From Myxococcota bacterium (GTDB taxonomy: Bacteria > Myxococcota_A > UBA9160 > UBA6930): a DNA stretch of 64,000 nt. The notes below the pieces were generated by a model. The model saw only the letters and a list, made by a program, of their open reading frames with translations. It made no database searches and was not told the origin of the DNA. Both the position numbers and the translations under genes were made by a program. The stretch spans positions 1,632,001 to 1,696,000 of the forward strand of contig OZ245015.1 of the NCBI GenBank assembly GCA_965223705.1, read 5' to 3'. Shown here piece after piece: positions 3,681-29,985 of the stretch (its first letter is position 1; every line of letters starts with the position of its first letter).

Positions 3681-4777
3681 GGTTGCGGGGCCGCGACCTC
3701 GGGCGGCTTCACGGCCATGCCGTCCCGCAGGCGTCGGACGCCCGCCGTGACCACGACATCGCCCGTGCTGACCCCGGTGAGGACTTCGATCCCTTCGCTC
3801 GTCAGCTCGCCGACTGTGACCGGTCTGCGCACGACGCGCGCTTCCTCGCCGGCGGTCTCCACGAGGAAGACAAAGCGACCGTCCCGATCTTCTCCCACGG
3901 CGACGGGTGGCAAGACGAAGCGCGCTTCGCCTCCGTTCGCGACAAAAGAGAAGCTCGCTTCGGCGGCCATGCCCGGCCGGACAGCGCCGTTGACTTCGTT
4001 CAGGAGGAGCGTGACGGGGTAGGTGGTGGACGCTCCCGTCGAGGCGACGCCGACCTCGTTGACCGTCGCCCCAAAGGTCTGCCCCTCGAGCGCGTCGAAC
4101 TGAACCGTCACCGCGTCGCCTGTGTGGATTGCGCCGATCAACGCCTCGGGAATCGTGAGCTCTACTTCGATCTGATCGCCGGAAGTCAGAACGGCCACGG
4201 GCGTGCCCGCCGCAACGTTCTCCCCGACCTCGCCGGGGATGCTCGAGATGGCCCCGGCGACGGCGGCCCGAAGCTTCGTGTAGGACAGCTGTGAGCGAGC
4301 GAGGCGGAGCTGCATCGAAGACGACGAGACCTGGGCTCGCCCCGATTCTGCGGCGGCGCGGGCGGAGTCCAGATCCGCACGGGAAGCGTTGTTGTTTTCG
4401 TAGAGTTCCCGCACGCGCTCGTAGTTCGCGCGCCCGTTGCGATCCTGTGCTCGCGACGACGCAAGCTGGGCTTCCGCTTGCTGGACCTGCAGCGAGAAAT
4501 CGCTCGCGTCGAGCTCCGCGATGAGCTGTGAGGGCTCGACCGTTTGCCCGACGCGTACGTGAATCTGTTCGATCCGGCCGGCGACGCGAAAAGAAAGCTC
4601 CGACTCGACACCGGCCCGGGCGACCCCCGAGAAGGTACGGGTCCGTGTCCCATCCTCTTCACTCACCACAATGGTGCGGACGGGGCGCAGAGGAGCCGGC
4701 GGTTCGGGCGGGTTGCCTCCGCAGGCGACGAGGGCCAGCGTGGCGATCACAATGGAACGGTCCAAGCGCGCGGTCAT
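3677..4777 (-). CDS. RND periplasmic adaptor (MFP), probable lipoprotein
   Basis: Start placed at MTARLDRS because its ATGA overlaps the upstream stop. Lipobox-like LVAC, lipoyl/hairpin motifs (SFRVAGRI, LRAAVAGAI). Confidence 0.9.
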   Translation of the reverse strand: MTARLDRSIVIATLALVACGGNPPEPPAPLRPVRTIVVSEEDGTRTRTFSGVARAGVESELSFRVAGRIEQIHVRVGQTVEPSQLIAELDASDFSLQVQQAEAQLASSRAQDRNGRANYERVRELYENNNASRADLDSARAAAESGRAQVSSSSMQLRLARSQLSYTKLRAAVAGAISSIPGEVGENVAAGTPVAVLTSGDQIEVELTIPEALIGAIHTGDAVTVQFDALEGQTFGATVNEVGVASTGASTTYPVTLLLNEVNGAVRPGMAAEASFSFVANGGEARFVLPPVAVGEDRDGRFVFLVETAGEEARVVRRPVTVGELTSEGIEVLTGVSTGDVVVTAGVRRLRDGMAVKPPEVAAPQP

Positions 4778-7191: not shown

Positions 7192-7210
7192 GCGGGTGCT
7201 GGGCGCGCGA

Positions 7211-10200
7211 CTATGCGTCGGCCTCCGGGTCAGAACCGAGCACCGAGTCGAGCTGACGTTCCTTGTCTTCCGCGCTCTTGAGGCTCGCCTCGAGTTCGCG
7301 CCGTTGGTCCTCGTTCAACGAAAGCACCGTCAGCGGGTCGGCTCTCTTCCACAGGGGCACGGCCGAGAAGCCGATGGCGGCGAGAGAGCTCGAGCGCATG
7401 ATCACCGACAAGAGGCCCGTCGCGCCCGCAATGGCGAGCGACTGGAACGATCGGTGAACCCACTCGATGTCCGCGCCTTCTTCCTCGAGCTGTCGGGTGA
7501 GCTCGCTCCGCAGGGTCTCGATCGATTCCAAGAAGGCCGGGTGCACGTAGCGCTTGGCCGCCTTGTCGTGTTCTTCTTCGAACACTTGGCTAGTACCACC
7601 CGACGTCCGTTCCGCTTCAACCAAAGTGAGCCCTCGTGTCTCGAAGCGCCCAGAGTCGCTCGCCGCAGCATGGAGCTCCCGTTTCTCACGAACAACTTCG
7701 TTGACCTGACCCAGCGTCAGATGAGCGTCCGCCGTGGAAATACGCTCTTCCTTTTGCGGAGTCGCGACTTTCGTTTCGACTTTGGGTTCGTCGGGTGAGG
7801 GCTCGGCCGACGCTACTTCTTCGGGCTCCGGCGTAGCGACGACTTGCTTGGCCTCGATTTCCACGCGTACAGCGCGGGAGTCGATCGCCCCCGCGGAATC
7901 CTCGGCGGAGATCATCAGATCGAAAGCCGTGCGACCACTGTTGCCGAGGGCGTTCGGATTGGCCACGAAAACGTCACCCGTCGACGGATCGATCGCGAAC
8001 GCTCCATCGACGTTGCCGCCCACGATGGCGTAGACCACCGAATCTCCCGGATCCGGATCGACGGCAACCACTTGACCCACCCACGATCCGGGCCCGGCTC
8101 CCTCACCGACACCGAACGTGTCCGCGTAGAGGACCGGCGCGTCGTTCTGCGGGTTGACGGTGACGTTCACGGTGGTGGTATTGGAAGGCGCGCCCGAAAG
8201 ATCACGGATCGTGTACGTGAAGGAGTCGGCGATCGTCTCGGACCCGTCGTGGGTGTACGTGACGGTACCGTCGCCGTTGACGAGGACGGTTCCGTTCGCC
8301 GGCGCTCCGATAATCTGGATCGATGCGAGATCGAGGGGGTTGTCGGGATCCGTATCGTTCGCGGCGAGGTCGATATTGACGGCCGCTCCTTCGTTGACGA
8401 GCGCCGCATCATCGACGGCCGTGGGGGCGTCGTTTTGGGGCGTTACGGTGACGTTGACCGTGGCCGTGTTCGAGATAGAACCCGAGAGGTCGCGGATCGT
8501 GTACGTGAAGGAATCGCCGGTGGTCTCGGACCCGTCGTGGGTGTAGGTCACCGTACCATCGCCATTGACGACGATCGATCCGTTCGCGGGCGACCCGAGG
8601 ATTTGGATCGACGTGAGGTCGAGGGGATTGTCGGGATCGGTGTCGTTCGCGGCGAGGTCGATGCCGACGGCCGCGCCTTCGTTGACGACGGCAGCGTCGT
8701 CGACCGCAGTCGGTGGATCGTTCTGAGGCGTCACGGCGACGTTCACCGTGGTGTTCGAGATAGCACCCGAGAGATCGCGGATCGTGTACGTGAAGGAATC
8801 CGCGGTGGTCTCGGACCCGTCGTGGGTATAGGTGACCGTGCCGTCGCCATTCACGAGGACGGTTCCGTTCGCGGGCGCCCCAACGATCTGGATCGATGCG
8901 AGATCGAGTGCGTTGTCGGGATCGGTGTCGTTCGCCACGAGATCGATATTGACGGGGGCGCCTTCGTTGACGACCGCGGCATCGTCTACCGCGGTCGGCG
9001 CATCGTTCTGCGGCGTCACGGTGACGTTGACCGTGGCCGTGTTCGAGACGGCACCGGATAGATCGCGGATCGTGTACGTAAACGAGTCCGCGGTGGTTTC
9101 GGATCCGTCATGGGTATAGGTCACCGTACCGTCGCCATTGACGAGGATGGATCCGTTCGCGGGCGCTCCGACAATCTGGACCGACGTGAGGTCGAGGGGG
9201 TTGTCGGGATCGGTGTCGTTCGTCGCGAGGTCGATGTTGACCGCGGCGCCTTCGTCGACCAAAGCCGCGTCGTCTACCGCCGTCGGGGCGTCGTTCTGCG
9301 GGTTGACGGTGACGTTGACCGTGGCCGTGTTGGAGACCGCGCCCGAGAGGTCGCGGATCGTGTACGTGAAGGAATCGCCGGTGGTCTCCGACCCGTCGTG
9401 GGTGTAGGTGACCGTACCGTCGCCATTGACGAGGATGGATCCGTTCGTGGGTGCTCCGACAATCTGGATCGACGTGAGGTCGAGGGGATTGTCGGGATCG
9501 GTGTCGTTCGCGGCGAGGTCGATATTGACGGCCGCTCCTTCGTTGACGAGCGCCGCATCATCGACGGCCGTGGGGGCGTCGTTCTGGGGCGTTACGGTGA
9601 CGTTGACCGTGGCCGTGTTCGAGATAGCACCCGAGAGATCGCGGATCGTGTACGTGAAGGAATCGCCGGTGGTCTCTGATCCATCGTGGGTATAGGTGAC
9701 CGTCCCGTCGCCGTTCACGAGGATCGATCCGTTCGCAGGCGCGCCAACGATCTGGATCGATGTCAGGTCGAGAGGGTTGTCGGGATCGGTGTCGTTTGCG
9801 GCGAGGTCGATGCCCACCGCGGCGCCTTCGTCGACCACCGCCGCATCATTGACCGCGGTCGGCGCATCGTTCTGAGGTGTCACCGTGATGGTGACCGTGG
9901 CGGTATTGGACACAGCACCCGAGAGGTCGCGGATCGTGTATGTGAAGGAGTCCGCGATGGTCTCGGACCCGTCGTGGGTGTAGGTCACCGTACCATCGCC
10001 ATTGACGACGATCGATCCGTTCGCGGGCGCTCCGACAATCTGGACCGACGTGAGGTCGAGGGGGTTGTCGGGATCGGTGTCGTTCGTCGCGAGGTCGATG
10101 TTGACCGCGGCGCCTTCGTCGACTAACGCCGCGTCGTCTACCGCCGTCGGGGCGTCGTTCTGCGGGTTGACGGTGACGTTGACCGTGGCCGTGTTGGAGA

Positions 10201-13200
10201 CCGCGCCCGAGAGGTCGCGGATCGTGTACGTGAAGGAATCGCCGGTGGTCTCTGATCCATCGTGGGTATAGGTGACCGTCCCGTCGCCGTTCACGAGGAT
10301 GGATCCGTTCGCAGGCGCACCAACGATCTGGATCGATGTCAGGTCGAGAGGGTTGTCGGGATCGGTGTCGTTTGCGGCGAGGTCGATGCCCACGGCGGCG
10401 CCTTCGTCGACCACCGCCGCATCATTGACCGCGGTTGGCGCGTCGTTCTGCGGTGTCACCGTGATGGTGACCGTGGCGGTATTGGACACAGCACCCGAGA
10501 GATCGCGAATCGTGTACGTGAAGGAGTCCGCGATGGTCTCGGACCCGTCGTGGGTGTAGGTCACCGTCCCGTCGCCGTTCACGAGGATGGATCCGTTCGC
10601 GGGCGCTCCGACGATCTGGATCGACGTGAGGTCGAGGGGGTTGTCGGGATCGGTGTCGTTCGCGGCGAGGTCGATGCCCACCGCGGCGCCTTCGTCGACC
10701 ACCGCCGCGTCGTTGACCGCGGTCGGCGCATCGTTCTGCGGGTTGACGGTGATGTTCACTGTGGCCGCGTTGGAGACCGCGCCCGAGAGATCGCGAATCG
10801 TGTACGTGAAGGAGTCCGCGGTGGTCTCGGACCCGTCGTGAGTGTAGGTGAGGGTACCGTCGCCATTGTCGACGAGTGAGCCGTTTGCCGGCGCGCCGGT
10901 GACCGTGATCGACGAGAGATCCAAGCCATCGTCCGGATCGGTATCGTTCCCCGCCACGTCAATCACGACGGAGCTACCCTCGTTGACGATCGCCGCATCC
11001 CCGACAGCGGTAGGAGCATCGTTTACAGCGACGACAGACACGATTGTCACGGCAGTGTTGCTCGTGGTGGTCCCGTCATTGACTTCGAAATCGATGTAGC
11101 GGTTCGTCGTGTTCGGTGCTGCCGAGCTGTTGTCGTAGGTAATCGTCCTGAGCACCTGCTGGTAGTTCGCGAGCGAGTCGGTGCCGCTCAGCAGGAGGAT
11201 GCCTGAAACCGCGTTGTAGCTCGCTACGATGCTCGTCCCAGTCGTGTTCGCCGATAGGATCTCGGCGGAACCGTCTTGAAGGTTCGTGATGGTAGCGGTC
11301 AGCCAAGCCAGGTTTGCGCTGTCGACATCACCGATAAACCCGTCGGAGTCGACGACGAGTACGGGGCCGCCACCTTCGGTGAAGGTCGTCGAGAAGTCCT
11401 CACCTACCTCCGAAGAGTCGTCGAAGTCGAGATCGAGAATGGGCGAATCGTCAACGGCGTTGATCGTGAGATTCACCGTCGCGATGTTCGATGAGCTACC
11501 TGAAACGTCATCGATTCGATAGGCGAAGGTGTCGGACACCGTTTCCGAGCCGTCGTGTGTGTAGGTCAGCGTCCCATCGCCGTTATCGATGAGGGTGCCG
11601 TTCGTCGGCGCCGTGGTGATGACGATGGAACCCAGGTCCAAGGCGCTGTCGGGGTCGCTATCGTTTCCCGCGACATCGATGACAACCGACTGTCCTTCGT
11701 TGACAACAGCGGCATCGGCCCCGGCGGTGGGCGCGTCGTTCACCGGATTGACCGTGATACTGACCGTCGCGACGTTGCTGGTGGCGCCCGAGAGATCCTG
11801 AATCGTGTAGGTAAACGTGTCGGTCGTGGTCTCCGACCCGTCGTGGGTGTAGGTGACGGTGCCGTCACCATTCACAAGGATTGAACCGTTTGCAGGCGCC
11901 CCGACGATCTGAATCGACGTGAGGTCGAGCGGGTTGTCGGGATCGGTGTCGTTCGCAGCGAGGTCGATCCCAACGGAAGCGCCTTCGTTCACGGCCGCCG
12001 CATCGTCGACCGCGGTCGGCGCGTCGTTGAGCCCGACGATACGGATCGTGGTGGTCGCGATATTGCTAAGATGGGAGACGATCGGGCCCCCGTCACTCGC
12101 GACGGTCTGGAGAACGCGATCCGTGAGGTCCGGCGACGCCGACGCGTTGTGGTACGTCACGGTCTCCAACACGGCTTGGTAGTTCGCCAGGGTGTCCGAG
12201 CCCGAAAGAGTCAGGAGTCCCGTTCCAGAATCGTAGGAAGCCGAAATCGCGGTCCCGGTGACGTCGGCAGAGAGGCTCTCCGAGGCGCCGTCGAGCAGGT
12301 TCGTGATCAAGACCGTCATCGACGCGAGGTTGGCGTGGTCGGAATCGCTGATGACGACGTCGCCGTCCGAGATCAATACCGGACCCCCGCCTTCGAAGAA
12401 CGTCGTCTCGAAATCGGAGCCGGGGGTTCCCGAGCTATCGTCGGCATCGAGGTCGATGAACGGGCTGTCATTCTGCGGGGTTACGGAGACGCTCACCGTG
12501 GCGGTGTTGGAGACCGCACCACTCGCGTCTCGAATCCTGTACGTGAACGAATCGGTCGTGGTCTCGGACCCGTCGTGGGTGTAGTCGACGGTGCCGTCAC
12601 CGTTCACGACGAGAGACCCGTTCGAGGGAGCACCGACGATCTCGATGGACGTCGGGTCGACGCCGTCGTCGGGATCCGTGTCGTTCGCAGCGAGGTCGAT
12701 CGTCGTGGTTCCCCCTTCGAGAACCGCCGCCGCGTCGGCCGCCGCGGTCGGAGCGTCGTTCACGTTCGTGAACGTGATCGCCGCCGCCTCTGGTCCGTCC
12801 GACAGGGAGCCATCTGAGACCGTCACCGCGTAGCTCGGTGCCGCTTCGCCGCCGTCGTGCACGAATTGGATGTCGCCATCCAGCACTTGCTGCTGGGTGA
12901 AGGTCGTGATCGCGACGCCCGGGTTCGCCACCGCCTCGAACCGGCCGCCGGAGACGGAGGAGACCGTAAATTCGAGTAGCCCCGCCGCCGTCTCAACATC
13001 GCTCGCCGAGACGTTCGAGGCGGAGAGGACCACCGTTGCCCCTTCGCTGATCACGAGCGCGTTGTTGCCGAGCAGCGGGGCATCGTTCTCCGCAGTGACG
13101 TCGATCCGGAGGGTCTCCGTCAGGGAGTCCGAGCCGCCGTTCGCGGTTCCACCCGAGTCGGTGACGCGGAAAGAGAAGAACGAGAAGCTTCCGCTCTCGT

Positions 13201-16200
13201 TGGGTGCCGGCTGGAACTGCATACCCTGGATCTGCGCGAGCGAGTACGTGCCCGTCGTGACCTGGGTGGTGTCGTCCGCGAGGTAGATGGTCCCGAAATA
13301 GACCGGATCCGGCACGACGGTCACTTCATACGTAAGGGTCTGGCCACTCTCATCCGAGCCGCCTCCCGCACCGTAGGCAAGGGCGCCCAGACCAAGCGAG
13401 GTCAAGCCCGAGTCCTCGGCAACGACGAGGTTGTTGACGGAACCCGCCGTGCGGACCGGGGCGTCGTTCACGGGATCCACCTGGATCACGAGGACGTCGA
13501 CGTCTTCTTCGCTCGAAGCGTCTCCACTCACGCCGGGATCGATTCCCGAGTTACCGAGATCGTTCGTCGCGATCATCAGATTCACGTTGCCGGTAAAGTC
13601 GGCGGTCGTGTCGAAGGTCAACGTGGCAAGGGCGGCATTGAGTTCGGCGATCGTGCCGGTGAACACCATGTTGGCGTCACTCGTTCCGTCCCCCGCCGAG
13701 AAGGAGAGGCCGGTGGTGCTCCCGAGGCTGAGTAGACCTCCCACACCGACGTTCAGCTGAACGCGCAACGTATCGGTCGGCAGCGCGTCGACGTCCCCGA
13801 CCTGCAGCGAGTCGCCCCCGGTGAAGGCGAGGGTTCCATCCTCGAGGACCGACACCGTGCTCGGTGCGGTATTCACCGGAGCGTCGTTGACCGCCGTCAG
13901 CTGGATCTGCTTCGTCGCCGTAGGACCGCTATCGATGCCGTCATCGAACGTGAAGGACACCGTACGAATGAGCTCGCTTGGGGCGTCGGACCCGTTGTAG
14001 AACGTGACGCTGCGGAGCGCCGCCTCGAAATCGGCCACACTCGCCGTCTGCCCCGCGCGTACCGACAGCACCAAGCGGTCACCGAAGTCCGTAGCGACAA
14101 TCGTCGTGGTGTCGGTGAACCCGAGCGTGTCGTCCGCGCTGTAGTTACCCGTGATCTGAACGACCGCAGTGTAGAGGTTGCTCGGGTCGACGCCTTGAGC
14201 GCCGTCGGGATCGACGAGGGTGAGGCCGGAGTCGATCGCGACCGCTGCCTGTTGCTCGGTGTAAGTGGTCGCGCCCGCGGTCGTCGTGATGACATTGACG
14301 TCGTTGTCACTCATGACGGTAACAGACGTCGTGGCGACGGGACTGTCGTCGCTACCGTCGTTCGCCACAAAGGTGATGACGCGCGTTGTCTCGTCCGGGG
14401 TCTCGGACGTGGAATCGTAAGTGACCGTTCGCAGGACCTGCTGGTAGTTCGCAACGGAATCCGATCCCGAAAGGAGCAGCGTTCCCGTACCCGGGTTGTA
14501 GCTCGCGAGAATCGAGGTTCCGGTGGTGTCGGCGGAGAGCAATTCCGCCGAACCGTCGAGCAGGTTCGCGATCGTCACGGCGAGCGAGGTCAGGTTCGAG
14601 CTGTCGACGTCACTGAGTGTTGCATCAGCGTCCACGATAGCCACCGGTCCGTTGCTTTCGGTCCAGCTCGTCGCAAAGTCAACACCCGCCGCTGCGGAAT
14701 CGTCCGCATCCAAGTCGAGGGCCGGCGCATCGTTTACCGGGTTCACCGCGATGGCAACCGTGCCACTCCCGACGTCATCGCCCGCATAGATGGCGGCGAT
14801 CTCATCGGCGGACAGCGCCTGGGTGTAGATCCGTGCGTCGTCCACCATGCCGAGTAGATCGAAGCTGCTGTCGGTAACATCGGCGTGGGTGCCGATGGTC
14901 GATTGCGGGAACCAACCGGTCCAAGTAATCGACGATGCGTAGCTGGCCGTGGCGACGACCTGTCCGTCGATATAGAGCGTCTGCGTGTCGTTGGCATCAT
15001 CGAAGCTGAAGGCCACATGGTGCCATTCACCGGCATTCATCGTCGTGCCACTTCCGATGAACTGGTGGGTCGAACCGTCGTAGAAGAAGGCGCTGACGCC
15101 CTCGCTCCAGTCGTTGATGCGGATGGCTACGTCATTGCCCAGAGAGATCAACTCGCCGCCATTCACTGCGGTGCTAGAAAAGTTGACCCAGGCCGCCAGC
15201 GTGACATCCGCCGGCTGCCCGTACAGGTCGTCGATGCGGACGTATTCTCCCGCCGCATCCAGCTGTAGCACTTCGCCGCGGTCGACATCCGCGGTGGTAT
15301 CGGCTCCGCCAACCAGCACGGCAGGTTGTGCGGTCCCGGCAGACTGGTCGGCAGCGGAACCGCCGGTAAACGTGTAGTGCCCCTGCAAGTCCGCGGCCAG
15401 CGCGGTGGTCATGTTCAGCGTTACCGCGCCGTTGTAGCCGGCATCCGGAGTAAAGGTCATGCCCTCCAGCGCGGCGTTGAGTGCCGACTCGGTGCCATTG
15501 ACGACAAAAGAGCCGGTGCCGTCACTGCCTTCGACGAAGTTCAGACCGGTCGTCTGCGCAAGCGTCAGCACGCCGTTGTCGACCGACAGGTTCACCTGAA
15601 ACTCCGTATTCGCGGTGATTACCGAGTCATCAACGGTCACGGCGTTGCCGTTGCCGCTGCTGAAAGTCAGGATCTGATTCTCGTCCACCGATTGCGGCCC
15701 TGGAAGCGACTGGCTGGCTTCGAGCGCGTTGTCGACCGAGATCGACATTACTTCGCTGTAGGAATGTCCGGCGGCGTCGGTGACCTCGACCGTGACGTCG
15801 TGAGAGGTCGCCGCTTCGTAGTCGAGCTGCGAGGCGTCGGCGACGGTAATCGCGCCCGTACTGCCGTCGATGGCGAAACGGCCATTGGCGTCATCCGTCA
15901 GACTGAATGCGTAGTTGCTGAGAACCTGGCTCGCGTCATATTCGATGATGTAAGGGCGAACGCCGATGCCTTCAGCGTCTGCCCATTGTCCGCTCGCGAC
16001 AAGCATGCGCGCAACATCCTCGTCGCCACCGCCCCCGGCGTCCACGCTCGGCTCGCCCACGAACCAGTTGACGTATTGTCCACTCACCGCGGTGCCGCCC
16101 GAATCGCCACTCCAGAAGGCTTCGTTTTCTTGTGCTCCCGAAAGCCAGCGCCAGTCACCCTCCGTGCTTTGGTCGGCCGCGCCGAGCCAGATATCCGCAC

Positions 16201-21466: not shown

Positions 21467-21649
21467 GGGACGGACTCCAATCACACTGCAAATCGGTGCA
21501 ACGACAGTGAATCTGAATCGAAAATTGAGGTCTAAATCACACGTTTATCATGAGAACTGGACATATCCGCTGGGGTTACAGTGCCCCACAACAGCGCGGA
21601 TTCCTCCACAAAGCCGCGATTTCCCTCATGAATCGACACGAATTCGTCG

Positions 21650-23395
21650 ATGACCGAAGCGATGACGCGCGCGTTCGACACGTGGCTTGCCGCCTTGTGC
21701 TCGGGGAGGTCCGGTGCACAGGCGACGCTGTGGCAGGCGAAGGCCGAGGGCGCTCTCGATCCGCTTGCACACCGGGGGGCGGAAGAGGGCACCCTCGAGC
21801 GGCACCGAATTCCGGCACAGACCGCGGCCGGGGCCGGCCGGCCGGTGATTCAAGCCGGGGACAACGCCGATTTGTTGGCCGCTGCGCACGGCGATTTCGT
21901 CGTGGTCCTCGAGCAATCGTCGACGTCGCCGCGCGAACAAGAAACCGCGCTTCGCGAGCTCGAGTCCGCGGTGCGTTGGTTGGTGTGGTCACGCAATCAC
22001 ACGCAGACGCCAGGCGCCGCCAAGCCCGACGAAGCTGACTTGCCAGAACTCGTCGACTTCGTGGCGCTGGCCCTCGAGCCGCAACCCGCCAAGGCCACAG
22101 CGCTCGCCCTCAGTACCGAGCTGGCGTCACATCTGTCGGCCGACCGCGTGAGTGTCGGGTACCGAGAAGCGCAGACGGTCAGCTTGCGCGCCGTCTCCCA
22201 CAGCCCCGCCGTCGATGCGCGCTCGGATCTCGTCCGCTCGATCGTGCAAGCGATGGAAGAAGCGATCGAGCAAGACGCCGTCATTCAGTGGCCGTCGCCG
22301 GAAGATTCCGGGCTGGCGCTCGGGGCGCATCGAGAACTGGCGAAGCGGCACGGCGCGGCGGCGGCCTGGTCCTATCCCTTGCGCCATGGCGATGAGATCA
22401 TCGGCGCTCTGTGCGTTGAGTTTCGCTCGCGCGGTCACGGTACGGAAGAGCGGCGCGCCTTCCTCGGTCGGCTGACGCCTCTCCTCGCGCCGATCCTCGA
22501 CCTCCGCGAGCGCGACGACGCGGGCGTTTGGAAGCGGGCGCGAATTCTCCTCGAAGAGGATCTCCCGCGCGCCCTCGGTTGGGAGCGCCTGCAGGCACGC
22601 TTCGCCTTCGCCGCGGTGGCCGCACTCCTCTTGCTCCTCGGCGTGATTCCGGGCACCCAGCGCGTGGCAGCGCCGGCAGAGCTCGAAGGGGTCGTCCAGC
22701 GCGCGATCGTGTCGCCGATGCCGGCCTTCGTGGCAGAGAGCCGCCGACGCGCTGGCGACACCGTACGCAGCGGCGAGGTGTTGGGTGTTCTCGACGACGC
22801 CGAGCTCCTTCTAGAACAACGCAAATGGAACGCGAAGCGCGAGCAGCGCTGGAAGGAGCTTCGCGCGGCGATGGCCACCGAGGATCGTGCGAACGTTCGC
22901 ATCCTGCGGGCGCAAGTCGATCAGGCCGACGCGGAGCTCGAGCTCGTCACCGAGCAACTCAAGCGGACCCGACTCGTCGCTCCCTTCGACGGCATCATCA
23001 CCCAGGGCGATCTGTCGCAGTCGCTCGGCTCACCCGTCGATCGCGGCGAAGTCTTGTTCGAAGTCGCGCCTCTCGATGACTTTCGGGTGATCGTCGAAGT
23101 GGACGACCGCGATATTTCTCAGATCGAAATCGGGCAAGCCGGGGCGCTGACCTTGGCATCGCTGCCCGGAGAACCGCGCGCTTTCCGGGTCGAGCGCGTA
23201 ACGCCCATCTCGACGGCGGAAGACGGCAGAAACTATTTCCGCGTGGAAGGGGCGCTGACAGAGGCATCGACGGAGCTTCGACCCGGGATGGACGGCGTCG
23301 CAAAGATCGACGTCGGGCGCCGCAGCTTGCTCTTCCTGCTCACGCATTCGGCCATCGATTGGGTCCAACTCAAGTGGTGGGCTTGGGTGCCCTGA
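21650..23395 (+). CDS. GAF domain + HlyD-family membrane fusion protein
   Basis: GAF-like central region (ADRVSVG...YPLRHGDEIIGAL), one TM segment, HlyD motifs (LVAPFDGII, LRPGMDG). Confidence 0.85.
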   Translation: MTEAMTRAFDTWLAALCSGRSGAQATLWQAKAEGALDPLAHRGAEEGTLERHRIPAQTAAGAGRPVIQAGDNADLLAAAHGDFVVVLEQSSTSPREQETALRELESAVRWLVWSRNHTQTPGAAKPDEADLPELVDFVALALEPQPAKATALALSTELASHLSADRVSVGYREAQTVSLRAVSHSPAVDARSDLVRSIVQAMEEAIEQDAVIQWPSPEDSGLALGAHRELAKRHGAAAAWSYPLRHGDEIIGALCVEFRSRGHGTEERRAFLGRLTPLLAPILDLRERDDAGVWKRARILLEEDLPRALGWERLQARFAFAAVAALLLLLGVIPGTQRVAAPAELEGVVQRAIVSPMPAFVAESRRRAGDTVRSGEVLGVLDDAELLLEQRKWNAKREQRWKELRAAMATEDRANVRILRAQVDQADAELELVTEQLKRTRLVAPFDGIITQGDLSQSLGSPVDRGEVLFEVAPLDDFRVIVEVDDRDISQIEIGQAGALTLASLPGEPRAFRVERVTPISTAEDGRNYFRVEGALTEASTELRPGMDGVAKIDVGRRSLLFLLTHSAIDWVQLKWWAWVP

Positions 23396-25536
23396 TGTCG
23401 GAACGGTTGTTCAGCTCCTATTGGTATCGCGTGGCGGAGCTCCGGCCGCGGCTCCGCGACCACGTCCGGATTCACCGACACGTCTACCGAGGCGAGCGCT
23501 GGTTTGTCTTGGACAACCCGGCGGGCGGGACGCAGTACCGGTTCGGGCGAGCGGCGAACTTCGTGGTAGAGCGCCTCGACGGGTCGCGAACCGTCAACGA
23601 ACTGTGGAATCTGGCGCTCGAGCATCTCGGGGATGAGGCGCCGAACCAGAACGCGATGATCACCTTGCTGGCGGAGCTCGACGCGGCCGATGCGATGGTG
23701 TCGAACGTCACGCCGGATACCAAGGCGATGTTCGAGCGCCATGCGCACCAAGAAAAACGCCGCAAGTCGAGCCGCTTCACGAACCCCTTGTATTTGAAGT
23801 TCCCGCTCTGGGATCCCGACCCGTGGCTCGATCGTTGGTTCCCCCGGGTTCGTTTTCTCTTCACGCGAAAGGTCGCGGCCGCTTGGCTCGTGCTCGTCGC
23901 ATGGGCAGCGTTTGAAGCTCTCCGAAACGCCTCGGAACTGGCCGCCTACGGTCAGCGCGCGCTGGGAGAGCCCAGCACCTGGTTTTTGGTCGTTCTTCTC
24001 TATCCCTTCGTCAAAGCGCTCCACGAGTTGGGCCACGCCTTCGCCGCGAAACACTGGGGAGCCCCGGTTCGAGAGATCGGCGTGATGTTCATCATTGGCA
24101 TGCCCGTCCCGTACGTCGACGCGTCCGCCACTTCGGCCTTTCCGAGCAAGTTCTCCCGCATGGTGGTCGCCGCGGCCGGCATCCTGGTCGAGCTCGCGCT
24201 GGCAAGCCTGGCGTTGCTCGCGTTCTTATCGATCGCGCCGGGCGTCCTGAAGCTCGCCGCGTTCAACGTGCTCGCGATCGGCGGTATTTCGACGGTGCTC
24301 TTCAACGGCAATCCGCTGATTCGTTTCGACGGCTACTACGTCCTGTCGGACGCGATCGAAGTGCCGAACCTCGCCGCCCGCGCGAGTCGTTTCCTCCGCT
24401 ACCTCGGTGAGACGCACATCTTGGGGCTTCCCGAGCGACGCGGTTCCGAGACCGACGCCCGGGTTCGCTGTTGGTTGTTCCTCTACGGCGCATGCGCGTT
24501 CGTCTACCGGATTTTCCTATCGTTGACGATCGCGCTCTTCGTCGCGGGGAAGTTCTTCACACTCGGGATCCTGCTAGCGGTGTGGTCGCTGCTCCTCCAG
24601 TTCGGCTTGCCGGTGCTGCGAGGGCTCGCACGGCTGCGGCTCGATCCTCGCGTCGGTGAGCGCCCGTTGCGCGTCGTCGCCGGTGCGGTCTGCGCGGCCA
24701 CGCTGACGACGCTCCTCGCGTTCGGTTTGCCGCTGCCGCTCTGGACGGTTTCGGACGGCGTCGTCTGGCTGCCCGAGCGATCACAGATTCGGACGGGCGC
24801 CGCCGGCATGGTGACGGCGATTCTCGCGACGCCGGGCGCGCGGGTCGCAGCTGGCGAGCCCCTCCTCGAAGTTCGCGACCCGATCTTGGCGGCGAAGGTC
24901 CGCGTGCTCGAAGCACGGGTGCGCGAAGCGACCGCGCGTATGGAATCCCAGGGCTACGAGGATCGCGTCGCGGGTGAGCTCGCGCGCACGGAATTGGGGT
25001 CGGTGAGAGCGGAGCTCAAGCGCGCCAAGCAGGAGCTGGGGGAAGAGGTCGTACGAGCGGGCGTCGCAGGTCAGTTCGTTTTGCCCCGAGCGGAAGATCT
25101 GGTCGGGCGCTATTTCGAAAAAGGCGCGGTCGTCGGTTACCTCAAGGTGGGAGGCGTGAGCACGCTGCGGGTCGTGGTTCGCCAACGCGACGTCGCCTGG
25201 GTACGCAATCAGACCGAACGGGTGAAGGTACGGCTGCCGGGTCGCGCTCCGGTGGAAGCGATCCTGGGCCGGGAAGTTCCCCAAGCAACCGCTCGCCTTC
25301 CGAGCTTGGCACTCGGCACCGTGGGAGGCGGAACCGTCGCGATCGATCACCGCGACGCCGAAGGCCTCACGGCGACCGAAGCGTTTTTTCAGTTCGACGT
25401 GCTCCTGCCGCCGAATACGGTGCCCCCCGGACTCGGTCTGCGGGCGAACGTTCGTTTCGACCACGGGCTCGAGCCGATCGGCTACCGGATGCTCCGGGCG
25501 ACGCGCCGTCTGTTTCTCCGGCGACTCCATGTCTGA
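23395..25536 (+). CDS. M50 (site-2 protease) family membrane metallopeptidase with N-terminal PqqD-like region and C-terminal HlyD-like domain
   Basis: HELGH (HExxH) and NGNPLIRFDG zinc-site motifs, several TM segments, lipoyl/coiled-coil C-terminus. ATG at 23395 overlaps the upstream TGA. Confidence 0.85.
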   Translation: MSERLFSSYWYRVAELRPRLRDHVRIHRHVYRGERWFVLDNPAGGTQYRFGRAANFVVERLDGSRTVNELWNLALEHLGDEAPNQNAMITLLAELDAADAMVSNVTPDTKAMFERHAHQEKRRKSSRFTNPLYLKFPLWDPDPWLDRWFPRVRFLFTRKVAAAWLVLVAWAAFEALRNASELAAYGQRALGEPSTWFLVVLLYPFVKALHELGHAFAAKHWGAPVREIGVMFIIGMPVPYVDASATSAFPSKFSRMVVAAAGILVELALASLALLAFLSIAPGVLKLAAFNVLAIGGISTVLFNGNPLIRFDGYYVLSDAIEVPNLAARASRFLRYLGETHILGLPERRGSETDARVRCWLFLYGACAFVYRIFLSLTIALFVAGKFFTLGILLAVWSLLLQFGLPVLRGLARLRLDPRVGERPLRVVAGAVCAATLTTLLAFGLPLPLWTVSDGVVWLPERSQIRTGAAGMVTAILATPGARVAAGEPLLEVRDPILAAKVRVLEARVREATARMESQGYEDRVAGELARTELGSVRAELKRAKQELGEEVVRAGVAGQFVLPRAEDLVGRYFEKGAVVGYLKVGGVSTLRVVVRQRDVAWVRNQTERVKVRLPGRAPVEAILGREVPQATARLPSLALGTVGGGTVAIDHRDAEGLTATEAFFQFDVLLPPNTVPPGLGLRANVRFDHGLEPIGYRMLRATRRLFLRRLHV

Positions 25537-27496
25537 AAAGCTGCGTCCGAGCGTGCTCGCGGGGAGCTACCCTGAGAAGCTCGATCCGATGCGGCCGCGC
25601 CTCGAACGCTGGCTCAGCAAGGCGAGTGAGCGCCGCAAGCGACCGAGCCTCGCCAACCTGGAGGCCTTCGCACAACGCATTGTCAGGCGATCGGACGAAC
25701 TCCGATCCGTGTCGGCCGACGAGCTGCGTCAGCGGGCGGACGCGCTCCGTCCGAGCCTGCGGCGGGCGCTCGCGGGACCGCCGCTACTCGAAGCCTTGGC
25801 CATCGTCCGAGAGCAGTCGCGGCGCCACCTGGGGATGGCGCACTTCGAGGTCCAGATCATGGCCGGCTGTGCGCTCCTCCGCGGGATGCTCGTCGAGCTC
25901 GACACGGGAGAAGGCAAGACGCTCTCGGGGACGCTTCCCGCCGCGGTTGCCGCACTGGCGGGCATTCCGGTGCATGTGGTGACGGTGAACGATTACCTGG
26001 TCGAACGGGACGCCGAAGCCATGGCGCCGCTCTTCCAAGCACTCGGCCTTTCGACGGGCCGGGTCATCGAGGACGAGCCCGATCCCGCTGCGCGCCGCGC
26101 CGCGTACGCTTCGGACATCACGTACGTTTCGAACAAGCAGGTCGCTTTCGATTATTTGCGGGACCGCATTTCCCTCGGCGGACGCGGCGGGGAAATCCGC
26201 GGGGAGGTGCAGCGGTTCGCGCACGCGGCGGAGGCACCGCTTCTTCGCGGGCTCTGTTTCGCGATCCTCGACGAGGCCGACAGCGTGCTGGTCGACGAAG
26301 CACGCACGCCTCTCATCTTGTCTCGCACGGTGCCGTCGCCGGGCCTCGCAGAGATCGCGCACGATGCGTTGTCGATCGCTCGGGAGCTCGACGAAAAGGA
26401 AGACCTCCGCTGGCGACACCCCGCGGCACCCATCGAAGTCACGGCTTCGGGACAGGAAAAAATCATCGAGCGCTGCGAGGGCCGCGGCGGAGTGTGGAAC
26501 GCGCCGGCTCGGCGGGCCGAGCTCTTGCGCGTCGCACTAGATGCACTCTACCGCTACAAGCGCGACGAGCACTACATCGTGCGCGACGGGCAGGTGGAAA
26601 TCGTCGACCCCCAGACCGGGCGGTCGATGCCGGATCGCTCGTGGGAGGGCGGCCTCCAACAAATGGTCGAGCTGAAAGAAGGGTGCGAGCTGTCGGGCGA
26701 TCGCGAGACCCTGGCGCGCATGAGCTACCAACAATTCTATCGGCGGTATCTCCGTCTCTCCGGCATGACGGGCACCGGCCGGGAAGTGAGGCGCGAGATC
26801 GAAGCCGTCTACGACATGCCGATGATTCGGATCCCGCCTCGTCGGCCGTCGAAGCGAATCGATCTCGGAGTCCACGTAATGCCGACGGTCGAGTCGAAAT
26901 GGAATGCGGCCGTCGACCGGATCACGGAGCTCCACCGCTCGGGGCGCCCCGTTTTGGTGGGCACGGCGAGCGTCAAGACGAGTGAGCTCTTGAGCGAAAG
27001 GCTCGATCGGGCCGGTCTGACCCACCGCCTTCTCAACGCCCGGCAAGATCACGCCGAGGCGGAGATCATCGGCGAAGCGGGCTTTCCGGGACGCATCACG
27101 CTTGCGACCGCGATGGCCGGGCGGGGCTCCGACATTCGGGTAGAAGGGCGCGAGGAGGAGCTCGGCGGCCTCCATGTGATTTCCGTCGAGCGCGCGGATT
27201 CGGGTCGCGTCGATCGACAGCTCTACGGACGCTGCGGTCGGCAGGGAGACGCGGGATCCTTCGAACAGATCGTGTCCCTCGAGGACGAACTCGTTCGCAA
27301 CGAAGCGACCGGGAGAGTGCGTCGCCTCGTGGTCGCCTTCCTCCGCCGCCTGGGCGGCGGTTCATTCGTGGGGCGGCTTTTGTTCCAGAACCTTCAACGT
27401 CGAGTCGAACGCCGGCATGCGCGCGAGAGGCGCGCCGTCATGCGGCAAGACGAGCAGTTCGCTCGACTGTTGTCGTTCTCCGGCACAGCGGAATAG
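25529..27496 (+). CDS. Short accessory SecA-like ATPase (SecA_DEAD protein)
   Basis: TGEGKT, VVTVNDYLVERD, FDYLRD, DEADSVLVDEARTPL, GMTGT, MAGRGSDI and QLYGRCGRQGDAG motifs. At 655 aa it lacks the wing/scaffold/C-terminal domains of housekeeping SecA. Confidence 0.92.
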   Translation: MSEKLRPSVLAGSYPEKLDPMRPRLERWLSKASERRKRPSLANLEAFAQRIVRRSDELRSVSADELRQRADALRPSLRRALAGPPLLEALAIVREQSRRHLGMAHFEVQIMAGCALLRGMLVELDTGEGKTLSGTLPAAVAALAGIPVHVVTVNDYLVERDAEAMAPLFQALGLSTGRVIEDEPDPAARRAAYASDITYVSNKQVAFDYLRDRISLGGRGGEIRGEVQRFAHAAEAPLLRGLCFAILDEADSVLVDEARTPLILSRTVPSPGLAEIAHDALSIARELDEKEDLRWRHPAAPIEVTASGQEKIIERCEGRGGVWNAPARRAELLRVALDALYRYKRDEHYIVRDGQVEIVDPQTGRSMPDRSWEGGLQQMVELKEGCELSGDRETLARMSYQQFYRRYLRLSGMTGTGREVRREIEAVYDMPMIRIPPRRPSKRIDLGVHVMPTVESKWNAAVDRITELHRSGRPVLVGTASVKTSELLSERLDRAGLTHRLLNARQDHAEAEIIGEAGFPGRITLATAMAGRGSDIRVEGREEELGGLHVISVERADSGRVDRQLYGRCGRQGDAGSFEQIVSLEDELVRNEATGRVRRLVVAFLRRLGGGSFVGRLLFQNLQRRVERRHARERRAVMRQDEQFARLLSFSGTAE

Positions 27497-27502
27497 AGCT
27501 CG

Positions 27503-29005
27503 CTACGGGGCGGCGTCGGTGTCGATCGCGTCAAACCGGGTGACCTGGTTGCGGCCGCCTTCCTTGGATGCGTAAAGCGCCTGGTCGGCCTGATCGATCA
27601 TCCCGGCCAGGTTCATCGCGCCGTCGCGAACACTCGCGACGCCGAAGCTCGCGGTGACGGGAACCATGGCGAAACCCGGTGATTCGATGTGGCGCCGCAC
27701 GCGGTCGGCGAGATCGAAAGCGTCGTCGTAGCCCGTATCGCCGAGCGCGACACAGAATTCCTCACCGCCGTAGCGACAAACCAGGCCGTGGCCGCCGAGA
27801 TGCAGGCGGAGCGTATCCGCGACCGCGCGGATCACTTCGTCTCCTGTCTGGTGTCCGCAGGTGTCGTTGATGCGTTTGAAGTGATCGATATCGACCATGA
27901 CACAACAGAGATCACCGTCCGACTGTCGCATCGACGCGAAGGTGGGCTCGATCGCTTCCATGAAGCTTCTGCGGTTCGCGACGCCCGTCAGCGGGTCGGA
28001 CTGGGCGAGAACGCGAAGTTCCTCGTTCTGCAACCGAACTTCGTCGCGAGATTTCTCGAGCTCCGTCAGCGCGCGCTCGAGTTCTTTTCTCTGTCGCTCT
28101 CGCTCGGTGACATCGTCGAAGGTCACCACCGCACCCGTGGTCTGGCCCCACCCGTCGAAGACGGGCGCGCCGTTGACCTGCAAGATCATTCGATTCCGCT
28201 TGCTTTGATTCAGGGTGAGGGTGGCTTCGGTGAAGGACTGGCCATCCCGGAGTGATTTCACCCAGGGCAAGTCGCCCTGCGCTTCCGCCCCATCGGCGTC
28301 TCGCCAAGGAAGGGAAGCGGCGTTCTTGCCGAGGAGCGCGGAGACGGGGTAGCCCATACGATCCGCGAACCCCTGGTTCGAGAGGACGATGTCTCCGTCT
28401 TTTGAGAGGATCAAGACGCCTTCCGTCATGATGTCGAGCGTGGCTTTGACCCGGGTCGGTATGACAGAAGACGGATCGAGCTGGCGCAACGTCCGTCGCA
28501 TGTAGAACGTGTAGACGACGAACCCGATTCCACACACGGCGATGACGAGGCGCGCCAGCGGTGATGCCGCGACGCGAGCGTACCAGGGGCGATCCTCGTC
28601 GCCGCGAAAACGCAATTCGAGATCGGCGTAGTGATCGCCCGCGCGGAACACCGGAACACGCACGTGCGTCGTGGTCGAGCGATCCGAATGCTCGGGTCTC
28701 CAGAGCTCTCGGTGATTGCCTTGGTGCGCGAGCAGGCGGCCGTCGCGGGTGCGAACGGCGACCGACAAGAGCGCGGAGTCTCGCGCAAGCGATGCCTTCA
28801 TCACCTCCGTCAACCCGCGAATGTTCGTGTCGTGAAGCGATGCGGTCGTCTGGGCGGCCACCACTTCGGCGAGACTCACGCGGGTGGCCACGAGATCGCG
28901 GTCCTCTTTCGGTACGACGCCTACGAGATCGAGTGAGAGGAGGATCGAGCCCGTGAGCAGTACCAACCCGAGACTGATCCGAAAGGTCGGTCCGAGGGAC
29001 TGCAC
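27503..29005 (-). CDS. Membrane-bound PAS-GGDEF diguanylate cyclase
   Basis: Two TM segments, PAS, DPLTG, DIDHFK..ND..GH and RYGGEEF. Confidence 0.92.
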   Translation of the reverse strand: MQSLGPTFRISLGLVLLTGSILLSLDLVGVVPKEDRDLVATRVSLAEVVAAQTTASLHDTNIRGLTEVMKASLARDSALLSVAVRTRDGRLLAHQGNHRELWRPEHSDRSTTTHVRVPVFRAGDHYADLELRFRGDEDRPWYARVAASPLARLVIAVCGIGFVVYTFYMRRTLRQLDPSSVIPTRVKATLDIMTEGVLILSKDGDIVLSNQGFADRMGYPVSALLGKNAASLPWRDADGAEAQGDLPWVKSLRDGQSFTEATLTLNQSKRNRMILQVNGAPVFDGWGQTTGAVVTFDDVTERERQRKELERALTELEKSRDEVRLQNEELRVLAQSDPLTGVANRRSFMEAIEPTFASMRQSDGDLCCVMVDIDHFKRINDTCGHQTGDEVIRAVADTLRLHLGGHGLVCRYGGEEFCVALGDTGYDDAFDLADRVRRHIESPGFAMVPVTASFGVASVRDGAMNLAGMIDQADQALYASKEGGRNQVTRFDAIDTDAAP

Positions 29006-29008
29006 AGC

Positions 29009-29920
29009 CTAGTCCAGGAGTTCGACGCTGCAGTGGAGGCCGGCCGCGACCTGGCCGTCGGGGTTTGGAAGCTCGAGCCGAACCTTGAACGTGCCACTAG
29101 CCGCGTCGACCACCGGATCGACCCGGTCGACCGTAGCCACGACCCGACTTTCGGCTCCGATCTCGGGCGATAGCGCCGCTCTCCGTCCGGGGCGGATTTC
29201 CCCGAAGCGGTTCGCGGGCAACAGCACGTCGACGTGCAGCGGGTCGATCTTCGCGATCGTGAGGATGGTCGCGCCATCGACAACCTCTCCCGGACTCAGG
29301 TTGCGAGCGACGACGAGTCCATCGATCGGCGACCGCAAGCGGCGGCGTTCGAGTGCGGCCTCAGCTTGCTTGAGTTCGAACCACGCGAGCTCTTGCGCTT
29401 CTTCGGCGCGGCGGAGATCGTGGCGCGCGATTCGCGCTTCGGACTGCATCTCGTCCCATTCCTCCGCCGAAAGCGCTCGACTCTCGAACAGCGTTGCGCC
29501 CCGCTCGGCGCGCCGCTCCTGCAACGCGACTTGTTCCTGCTGAGAAAGAAGCGTGCCCTCGGCTGTAGCGCGGGATTCCGCCGCACGGACCGCTGCCTCC
29601 TCGACGCCCGCTTCGAGCCGAACCACCAGCTCGCCGGCGGACACACGGTCGCCGACTTCGGGTGTCACTTCTTCGATGAGACCGACGGTTTGGCTGCCGA
29701 TGTCGACGAGGTCGGAAGGCTGGATCAGGCAGTCCAAAACGGTGGGATCCGCTCCCGACCGCGTAGCTGCGGCACTCGGCGGACGCTGGGTCGCAACCGC
29801 AGGCAGCGGATCGGGCTCGGCGGCATGCGGAACGGCGGCGCCGCCACCCACCGCGAAGGCAAACGCGACGAGCACCCAGACACTCCGATGTGATTGAAAC
29901 CATCCACCCTGACGGGACAC
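29009..29920 (-). CDS. Membrane fusion (periplasmic adaptor) protein
   Basis: Lipoyl halves and hairpin (LRSPIDGLV), VDAASGTFKVRLELPN. GTG start at 29920 has GGAGG 7 nt upstream. Confidence 0.85.
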   Translation of the reverse strand: MSRQGGWFQSHRSVWVLVAFAFAVGGGAAVPHAAEPDPLPAVATQRPPSAAATRSGADPTVLDCLIQPSDLVDIGSQTVGLIEEVTPEVGDRVSAGELVVRLEAGVEEAAVRAAESRATAEGTLLSQQEQVALQERRAERGATLFESRALSAEEWDEMQSEARIARHDLRRAEEAQELAWFELKQAEAALERRRLRSPIDGLVVARNLSPGEVVDGATILTIAKIDPLHVDVLLPANRFGEIRPGRRAALSPEIGAESRVVATVDRVDPVVDAASGTFKVRLELPNPDGQVAAGLHCSVELLD

Positions 29921-29985
29921 GACCGAGCCTCCACGAACCCGTTCTTCTTCGGGATTTCGAGGTGTCAGCCTGAGCCAGTCGTGGG

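Follow-up and report, generated by a model that had tools for sequence, protein, structure and literature searches.

A candidate leader-directed export module built on an RRE-M50-adaptor fusion protein beside a giant LEPR-XLL/DUF4347 adhesin gene of a Myxococcota bacterium

Introduction

A four-gene locus encoding a secondary SecA_DEAD protein, an M50-HlyD protein, a GAF-HlyD protein and a HlyD protein was described computationally by Kamneva, Poudel and Ward in 2015, who already proposed the SecA protein as the ATPase and the M50 protein as the pore (PMC4452313). Here we analyse such a locus, which stands beside the gene of a giant adhesin with an LEPR-XLL leader and a DUF4347 domain, in a window of 64,000 nucleotides from a Myxococcota bacterium (GCA_965223705.1, contig OZ245015.1, positions 1,632,001 to 1,696,000; coordinates below are those of the window unless another locus is named). 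Like the published locus, the window possesses a SecA_DEAD protein without SecA_SW, adjacent M50-HlyD, GAF-HlyD and HlyD proteins and no ABC transporter, and it is a member of the 2015 gene set, known computationally. The association of SecA_DEAD proteins with secretion-related genes, which an earlier reading of the window sequence (the original prediction) had mentioned, was thereby already published (PMC4452313). The RiPP recognition element (RRE), the leader, the larger SecA-less clade and the cargo do not figure in the available text of that account: the terms 'adhesin', 'large protein', 'DUF4347', 'PqqD' and 'cadherin' have no occurrence in its main text, and its S2 Table holds no giant-protein cluster (PMC4452313). 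New beyond 2015 are the cargo link, the RRE with a model of leader binding, the clade-specificity of SecA and the protease-like fold of DUF4347.

Two strains that are harmless and experimentally tractable, M. extorquens AM1 and R. pomeroyi DSS-3, carry the module. R. pomeroyi DSS-3 appears in the 2015 table of module-bearing strains (PMC4452313), and no exoproteome evidence was found for R. pomeroyi in a literature search that left supplements outside. In M. extorquens AM1, the module META1p2399-2402 adjoins island 2402-2415 (PMC4452313, PMC2680597), which holds META1_2412, a protein of 15,831 aa (PMC2680597); the available text of neither paper draws the link between module and giant. In Chlorobium chlorochromatii, two LEPRxLL giants, reported to lack known transport signals, flank a TolC and a SapC gene, and M50 is unmentioned in the available text of the preprint (bioRxiv 10.64898/2026.03.19.712371). 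A literature search that left subscription journals mostly outside turned up no paper which connects the module with LEPR-XLL/DUF4347 cargo or tests it.

Regarding similar systems, the RRE-dependent intramembrane peptidase of daptides removes a leader with the motif ELExMEAP (bioRxiv 10.1101/2023.03.08.531785). This peptidase, MpaP, shares with the core protein of the module the RRE and M50 architecture and the HExxH and NPxxxxDG ligands, and its leader resembles the LExLEPR found here; however, in the window a periplasmic adaptor is fused on, the substrate is a giant protein, and there are no tailoring enzymes of ribosomally synthesised, post-translationally modified peptides (RiPPs). Type I systems for giant adhesins (HlyB-HlyD-TolC; LapB-LapC-LapE/LapA; SiiCDF/SiiE) likewise possess HlyD-type adaptors, a TolC, which in the module is a putative partner, giant Ig/cadherin cargo encoded next door and cyclic di-GMP (c-di-GMP) genes close by, whereas the module has no ABC transporter, three distinct adaptors and no RTX repeats, and its cargo carries a conserved N-terminal leader instead of the uncleaved C-terminal signal of type I. 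Peptidase-containing ABC transporters (PCATs) carry a protease of their own, which recognises an N-terminal leader and cuts it at the onset of export. The module would follow the same leader-cutting logic, but with a zinc site-2 protease and an RRE instead of the C39 cysteine protease and with no ABC domain; PCAT cargo consists of short peptides with a double-glycine leader, whereas module cargo runs to thousands of residues behind an LExLEPRxLLS leader. SecA2 and SecA2-SecY2 systems for serine-rich adhesins also place a second SecA, with ATPase motifs and PPXD clamp, beside a giant adhesin, but the window SecA ends near B. subtilis residue 614 and its host is a diderm with TolC adaptors. By their defining features the locus is not type I, PCAT or accessory Sec, and the module would work most like a leader-cleaving, TolC-dependent exporter.

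On balance, we favour the reading that the locus encodes a machine which exports and matures the adjacent giant adhesin under the direction of its leader, and in which an RRE-protease-adaptor fusion replaces the ABC transporter. The chances seem even that it represents an undescribed secretion class, common in diderms, with RiPP-style reading and clipping of LEPR leaders, an N-terminus-first tunnel of mixed membrane fusion proteins (MFPs) and TolC without an ABC transporter, cargo of up to ~19,000 residues, possibly co-translational export, and a re-docked SecA clamp boosting the longest cargo.

Results and Discussion

Layout of the module

The original prediction described a translationally coupled operon of GAF-HlyD, M50-HlyD and truncated SecA genes, divergent from the adhesin gene, and the list of open reading frames (ORFs) together with family scans recovered every ORF it had named, each in its place. 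The module and its cargo comprise the following features.

7211..21484, minus strand: giant adhesin-like cargo, 4,757 aa from GTG (ORF list and family scans)
21368..21400, minus strand: LEPR-XLL leader motif, adhesin residues 29-39, predicted ligand of the RRE-M50 protein (profile match and leader alignment)
20729..21238, minus strand: DUF4347 domain spanning adhesin residues 83-252, predicted to be a cysteine protease of the caspase clan (clan CD-like)
21650..23395, plus strand: GAF-MFP adaptor (GAF-HlyD), 581 aa (family scan)
23395..25536, plus strand: RRE-M50-MFP fusion (M50-HlyD), 713 aa from ATG, the defining core protein
23467..23685, plus strand: PqqD/RRE-like domain, M50-MFP residues 25-97 (PF05402 match, AF2 fold)
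24022..24330, plus strand: M50 zinc site, H210-E211-x-x-H214 and D312 of NPxxxxDG (homologue alignment)
25529..27496, plus strand: truncated paralogue of SecA, 655 aa (family matches: SecA_DEAD, PP-bind, P-loop)
29009..29920, minus strand: short MFP, the third adaptor, whose hydrophobic N-terminal segment is likely a signal peptide; conserved module member

Because stop and start codons overlap by 1 nt (GAF/M50) and 8 nt (M50/SecA), the three genes are translationally coupled, as had been predicted. The operon and the adhesin gene diverge across 165-183 bp, a gap in which a promoter-like site was searched for and none was found; an alternative ATG at 21466 would give an adhesin of 4,751 aa. 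The gene of the short MFP converges on the operon.

The window genome (G000), which is 95% complete and also encodes a separate full-length SecA, has a second copy of the module (C1:1199727-1220165; L001, L002), comprising an MFP, a short SecA, an RRE-M50-MFP, a GAF-MFP, a response regulator (RR)-GGDEF-EAL protein, a hybrid kinase, and its own LEPR-DUF4347 adhesin and TolC. Around residue 1,200 the reading frame of the second-copy adhesin gene changes, either through an error of assembly or because the gene is a pseudogene.

Co-occurrence of module and cargo

With the module defined by an M50-MFP profile, a sample of 121 genomes from the same phylum contains it in eight, and DUF4347 in seven, all within those eight. 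All nine DUF4347 matches share a contig with an M50-MFP gene (eight within 6 kb, the ninth at 12.8 kb), and LEPR-XLL at E<0.01 gave eight matches in five genomes, all module-positive; weaker LEPR-XLL matches, up to E=1, were dropped as noise. A second sample, 331 draft genomes drawn around a Methylococcaceae genome (G121), has the module in 80, DUF4347 in 75 (66 shared with the module) and LEPR-XLL in 52 (49 shared). LEPR-XLL or DUF4347 is present in 76 of the 80 module-positive versus 12 of the 251 module-negative genomes. As well, a single-protein scan of genome contigs for related loci returned 10 loci, and among 80 metagenome loci, collected with a SecA-clade query, the GAF-MFP occurs in 77; of the 61 loci whose downstream sequence reaches at least 600 bp, 57 have the short SecA. 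The adhesin and the module are very likely functionally linked; both samples support the earlier proposal of the adhesin as cargo, and the co-occurrence it had suggested looking for was found for the M50-MFP and the LEPR-XLL/DUF4347 genes.

One 16,790-aa open frame with an LEPR leader (G062:C177:40000-50958, L116) lies in a genome of the same family on a contig without a module match. A third 'LEPR-like' protein of the window genome (2,706 aa) is a TPR protein and was discarded as a false positive.

Adhesin, leader and DUF4347 domain

The adhesin consists of the leader, DUF4347, LamG/pentraxin, C-type lectin, choice-of-anchor C/DUF642 and cadherin domains and tandem-95 Ig repeats. It has two cysteines in all and no RTX nonapeptides, and no hydrophobic signal peptide was found in a sequence scan. 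Its first 100 aa match LEPR-XLL (NF012209) with 20.5 bits, above the curated cut-off of 17. The motif LExLEPRxLLS follows a basic N-terminus, and E30, E33, R35 and L37 are unchanged in 25 of 25 aligned leaders; the consensus differs between two clades of the module, LEPR[IL]L[LF]S versus LEPR[MV][ML][FY]DG. Cargo N-termini thus share a leader motif, whereas the C-termini are heterogeneous across loci, and a C-terminal secretion signal common to the cargo was looked for and not found.

A GC-rich hairpin of 11 pairs followed by a T-rich run (21380-21406, minus strand) overlaps the LEPR leader codons, and terminator-like sites number 3 versus 0.4 expected in 21300-21800; the hairpin might arise as a side effect of codon choice. 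Only a subgroup of cargo (window, 7211-7500; L011, L111, L113, L157; second copy, L002) has a hydrophobic tail at the C-terminus, which closes with Pro-x-Trp ... Asp-Pro-Leu and an acidic terminus; this tail could be a retention anchor.

DUF4347 carries His143 and Cys186; these two residues do not vary across the 92 aligned sequences and lie 42 residues apart, one in a strand-HG and the other in a strand-GC context. The best fold match of its structure model (pLDDT 92.9) is PDB 9QPE_G (E 7.2e-6, TM-score 0.57), followed in order by flavodiiron/flavodoxin folds, legumain, caspases and CHAT; these matches are moderate (TM-score 0.4-0.57), and flavodoxin-type folds score about level with caspases. 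The ESM Atlas gave no usable match. The 9QPE protein, P. aeruginosa Tce1, has been called a putative cysteine protease from the same His/Cys dyad (PMC13323088). The domain shares the His-Gly/Gly-Cys dyad and the fold with Tce1 and clan CD proteases (caspase, legumain, CHAT), but it sits at an adhesin N-terminus and is a predicted protease only. Judging from the model, DUF4347 looks like a caspase-clan cysteine protease. This fold assignment has in part been published already, but nowhere in the literature found is it made for adhesins. The RRE and the protease-like DUF4347, both overlooked in the original prediction, would give the module its specificity.

RRE-M50-MFP core protein

Residues 25-97 of the M50-MFP protein form three strands and three helices (AF2, mean pLDDT 87.7). 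The PqqD family PF05402 matches the protein at E 8.7e-5 with 23.2 bits, 0.2 under the cut-off of 23.4, and is carried by many M50-MFP homologues. No Pfam PqqD match was obtained in the first 110 residues of the second-copy M50 protein or of two second-clade M50 proteins, where the RRE is assigned by alignment alone. The best NCBIfam match is the daptide RRE-site-2 protease NF041824 (E 7.7e-43, residues 30-415), with 147 bits, below the curated cut-off of 300; RiPP precursor or tailoring genes are absent from the window. Among the matches listed, a Foldseek search with the full M50 model returned adaptors only, and a sequence search found no solved structure of a close RRE-M50 relative.

Neither the 101 homologues nor the 20 second-clade proteins show any change at H210, E211, H214 and D312, and these zinc ligands rule out an inactive pore. 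Accordingly, of the two roles first proposed for the M50 protein, channel or processing unit, the latter is likely and that of a mere pore was rejected.

A complex of M50-MFP residues 1-415 and zinc with adhesin residues 19-49 was predicted with a score of 0.65 (runs 0.61, 0.67 and 0.65), versus 0.00 for the best of three controls; of 157 solved complexes 116 attain the mark used for this score, as do 2 of 215 mismatched pairs. Contact agreement between runs was at least 76% and partner pLDDT at least 51. In the model, adhesin L29-L32 pairs with the RRE strand 46-51 and helix 87-98, R35 lies near D242-S244 and Y315, and the zinc ligands are listed among the confident contacts. R49 is kept in 100 and D242 in 93 of 101 homologues, both largely in the second clade too. 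In favour of the model, its contact residues show stronger conservation than the remaining ones (0.81 versus 0.65). From this model, the RRE-M50 protein quite probably binds the adhesin leader; that it also cleaves it is fairly probable, going by its catalytic residues and the analogy with MpaP.

Short SecA and the two clades

The short SecA aligns to B. subtilis SecA residues 16-601 and ends 13 residues later (near B. subtilis 614). It retains NBD1, the PPXD clamp, NBD2 and the first part of the scaffold helix, followed by a family-specific, conserved tail; there is no SecA_SW match, and the wing domain and two-helix finger (finger tip Y743 of the reference) are missing. The protein falls below every SecA2 model cut-off, no SecY2 or Asp genes were seen, and the window region holds no SecY. 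The Walker A lysine, the DEAD residues, R365 (the clamp arginine R322 of B. subtilis), R370 and the motif VI arginines are found in 65 of 65 sequences. A decayed pseudogene is ruled out by the unchanged motifs and the conserved C-terminal tail. According to a previous study, the moving parts of SecA sit in the clamp, and the two-helix finger (tip Y743) is the guide into SecY (Dong et al. 2023, PMC9926265). We infer from the sequence that the short SecA would be a working polypeptide clamp that no longer docks to SecY and acts for a different partner in the membrane.

The truncation bears on a two-step route, which we consider unlikely: the cargo would cross SecYEG by means of the short or housekeeping SecA, the M50 protein would act as signal peptidase, and the MFPs with TolC or TpsB would collect the cargo from the periplasm. 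In favour of this route, SecA normally partners SecY, and a housekeeping SecA would serve the SecA-less clade; LEPRxLL giants are periplasmic in the C. chlorochromatii preprint (10.64898/2026.03.19.712371), and TpsB genes stand beside some modules. The similarly truncated E. coli SecA-N68, a constitutive ATPase, still binds peptides and SecYEG but cannot translocate through SecY (PMC5603524). Moreover, the window SecA lacks the SecY-entering finger, the leader lacks a hydrophobic core, and the complex model seats this leader on the cytoplasmic RRE of a TolC-adaptor fusion protein, all of which speaks against the two-step route.

As regards the place of SecA in that machine, 20 high-scoring and 20 low-scoring module loci on long contigs were compared, from 149 listed; the short SecA is present in 18 of the former (SecA clade) versus none of the latter (second clade). 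A quick tree of 68 M50 proteins separates a 22-row SecA-less side from a 46-row side with 43 SecA loci (SH-aLRT 99), and within the SecA clade apparent losses occur at L070, L151 and L156. A profile of the short-SecA C-terminus matches 28 of the 331 genomes, all 28 module-positive, with 34 of 38 matches at most 6 kb from the M50 gene; 52 of the 80 module genomes are unmatched. The conserved core is the RRE-M50-MFP protein with adaptors and cargo, and the short SecA is clade-specific. The unmatched genomes and the SecA-less second-clade loci rule it out as a universal motor; of the first proposal that SecA is the motor, the intact ATPase and clamp stand, but it does not define the module. Cargo tends to be longer beside a short SecA gene: among the matches listed, paired cargo frames have a median of 8,858 aa (n=20) there, whereas at modules lacking SecA it is 3,067 aa (n=43). 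As an accessory motor, the short SecA is marginally favoured.

In its strict form, combining the original prediction with the 2015 account, the short SecA would be an essential dedicated motor, the M50 protein mainly a pore and the adjacent TolC the exit. This is improbable in spite of the coupling of SecA to M50 here, its frequency in the metagenome loci (57/61, SecA-clade query) and its invariant Walker A/B and motif VI, since 52 of 80 module genomes have no short-SecA match, none of the 20 second-clade loci has SecA or an ABC exporter, SecA seems to have been lost in three loci of its own clade, the zinc site is invariant, unlike that of a mere pore, and the adjacent TolC is unconserved. 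SecA may be essential within its own clade.

Adaptors, ABC exporters and TolC

The GAF-MFP has a cytoplasmic GAF domain (155-278), one transmembrane helix (318-336) and a periplasmic HlyD-type adaptor, and the three HlyD-type adaptor domains of the module all fall under the TIGR01843 cut-off. As originally predicted, no ABC exporter is present in window positions 1-36,000 (ORF list and family scans). Across the 95%-complete window genome no protein exceeds the TIGR01843 cut-off for type I HlyD, and the four ABC-membrane proteins of this genome are unlinked to the module; three of them were scanned and are plain exporters without a peptidase (C39) domain. The 40 fetched genome loci hold no ABC exporter and a solo ABC-ATPase ORF in one, and the 80 metagenome loci hold solo ATPase ORFs in two only; no ABC exporter was found consistently linked to such adhesins or travelling with the module.

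It could be argued that the role of the module is confined to processing or regulation (removal of the leader, anchoring, GAF and c-di-GMP signalling), and that the adhesin exits by an unlinked system, for example a canonical type I, type II or two-partner one. M50 proteases are well known as regulators, and in the window lineage the module is surrounded by genes for GAF, GGDEF, EAL and kinase proteins. Nevertheless, three HlyD-type adaptors and a frequent TolC have no evident role in pure signalling, the genome lacks a type I HlyD over cut-off and its four ABC-membrane proteins are unlinked, the three scanned being without C39, and the cargo has neither RTX repeats nor a conserved C-terminal signal, making this alternative very improbable.

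A third MFP and a TolC were correctly placed near the operon in the original prediction, the TolC lying just outside the range it covered, at the head of the following run.

4774..7191, minus strand: TolC-family protein, 805 aa, long N-terminal extension, heading the resistance-nodulation-division (RND) operon
3677-4777, minus strand: RND-MFP, in the TolC / RND-MFP / AcrB run
624-3680, minus strand: AcrB, in the same run

The further claim that the MFPs bridge to this TolC as the exit is probably wrong. At E<=1e-10 the window TolC matches one of five related module-bearing genomes, the other four having no close match; in G123, a related complete chromosome, two outer-membrane efflux protein (OEP) genes lie >1.2 Mb from the module and none is near it, and neither G123 nor G097 has a TolC-like gene 3' of the adhesin. 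RND-linked and unconserved beside the module, the window TolC was rejected as the probable dedicated channel and is probably the channel of the RND pump. Its N-terminal extension of ~340 residues has no Pfam match. RND pumps move small molecules. That the adjacent proton-driven pump itself (AcrB, MFP and TolC, 624-7191) is the energised exporter is scarcely credible: it lies on the adhesin strand ~20 bp downstream, with no terminator-like site found between, but it transports small molecules, is not syntenic in G123 or G097, and AcrB occurs near the module in one other checked locus only (L038).

Proposed mechanism

In the leader-directed export machine favoured here, the cytoplasmic RRE would first bind the LExLEPRxLLS leader as an added strand on RRE strand 3, with the residues past the invariant Arg entering the zinc site, as the complex model predicts. 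The M50 protein would then remove a leader of ~35 residues, as its invariant catalytic residues and MpaP suggest. Judging from domain content, the M50-MFP, GAF-MFP and short MFP could form a mixed adaptor ring, whose membrane helices would provide the inner-membrane path and whose hairpins would dock a TolC, here probably encoded elsewhere in the genome; the cargo chain would leave unfolded, N-terminus first. Export through MFPs and TolC is probable. In the clade that tends to the longest cargo, the short SecA clamp might feed the chain into the adaptor path as an accessory, while the SecA-less clade would rely on other energy, for which translation itself and folding of Ig/cadherin repeats outside would be the most economical guesses. 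Finally, the DUF4347 protease domain would emerge first and trim or release the adhesin, and the linked c-di-GMP genes might time its production or display.

A number of observations weigh against this mechanism. LEPR-XLL or DUF4347 occurs in the 12 module-negative genomes mentioned above, and four of the 80 module genomes have neither; both samples are kin-rich, and since kin are not independent, significance is overstated. In the complex model the partner pLDDT is low (52-55), the pass may partly mirror memory of solved RRE-leader and site-2-protease complexes, our own alignments and the riding zinc fall outside the calibration of the tool, and the conservation of contact residues is due in part to the catalytic site itself. 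The contrast in cargo length is confounded with clade, contig ends possibly shortened open frames, and the divergent SecA locus L152 was scored as 'without'; pairing took cargo on the same contig as the module only, with 34 DUF4347 matches outside the listing. TolC lies within ~9 kb in 4 of 20 SecA-clade loci and 13 of 20 second-clade loci, and the OEP genes of G123 are remote from its module. TpsB (ShlB/FhaC) was confirmed in two of two ORFs tested 3' of the module in some Methylococcaceae-type loci, and the C. chlorochromatii LEPRxLL giants, reported to be periplasmic when the partner is absent, suit the two-step route better than a sealed tunnel (10.64898/2026.03.19.712371).

If the mechanism holds, the module offers a concrete candidate exit route for the largest bacterial proteins. 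LEPR-XLL/DUF4347 giants of 2,000 to >19,000 residues in our samples have neither Sec signal peptides nor type I signals, and the module is widespread in one kin-rich sample (80 of 331 genomes). Two unexplained domains would gain candidate functions, LEPR-XLL as export leader and DUF4347 as protease; a SecA would function although it has no SecY finger, and a TolC assembly would do so with no known pump. If real, an N-terminal tag for export, 11 residues long, could help to secrete large proteins.

Neighbouring genes and other features

Two further features adjoin the module in the window.

27503..29005, minus strand: membrane PAS-GGDEF diguanylate cyclase, GGEEF motif intact, syntenic with the module in close relatives and directly behind the short MFP
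29986..34685, plus strand: pair of genes for a hybrid histidine kinase and a response regulator-GGDEF-EAL protein, with synteny kept in G123 (L159) and, it appears, in L005

In loci with DUF4347 cargo, a membrane PAS-GGDEF or PAS-kinase gene with a common N-terminal membrane domain accompanies the module, often together with a kinase and an EAL gene (window 27503-34685; L005, L006/L159, L107, L109-L112, L011, L061). These neighbours recall the c-di-GMP control of Lap adhesins, and the kinase and RR-GGDEF-EAL pair likely represents c-di-GMP control, not machine parts.

In several other loci the module is followed by a TpsB gene and another large ORF (L140:13903-16005, L145:13869-15905; comparable ORFs in L143, L144, L146 and L148). 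SapC-family genes (L047, L074, L083, L086, L138) and a DUF3467 gene (L148:13059-13355) recur and are absent from the window. In SecA-less loci, the stretch from M50 to cargo contains genes of the sulfotransferase and phage tail-collar types (L128:7842-8720; L132:5557-6456 and 7154-8794), for which a role in cargo modification is possible.

Finally, a lower-GC island at 36126-58890 carries a SIR2-like protein of 1,060 aa, an AAA/DUF3696 ATPase, a type I restriction-modification set, an RtcR-like sigma-54 activator, several ORFs without assignment and a tyrosine integrase, and is probably a defence island.

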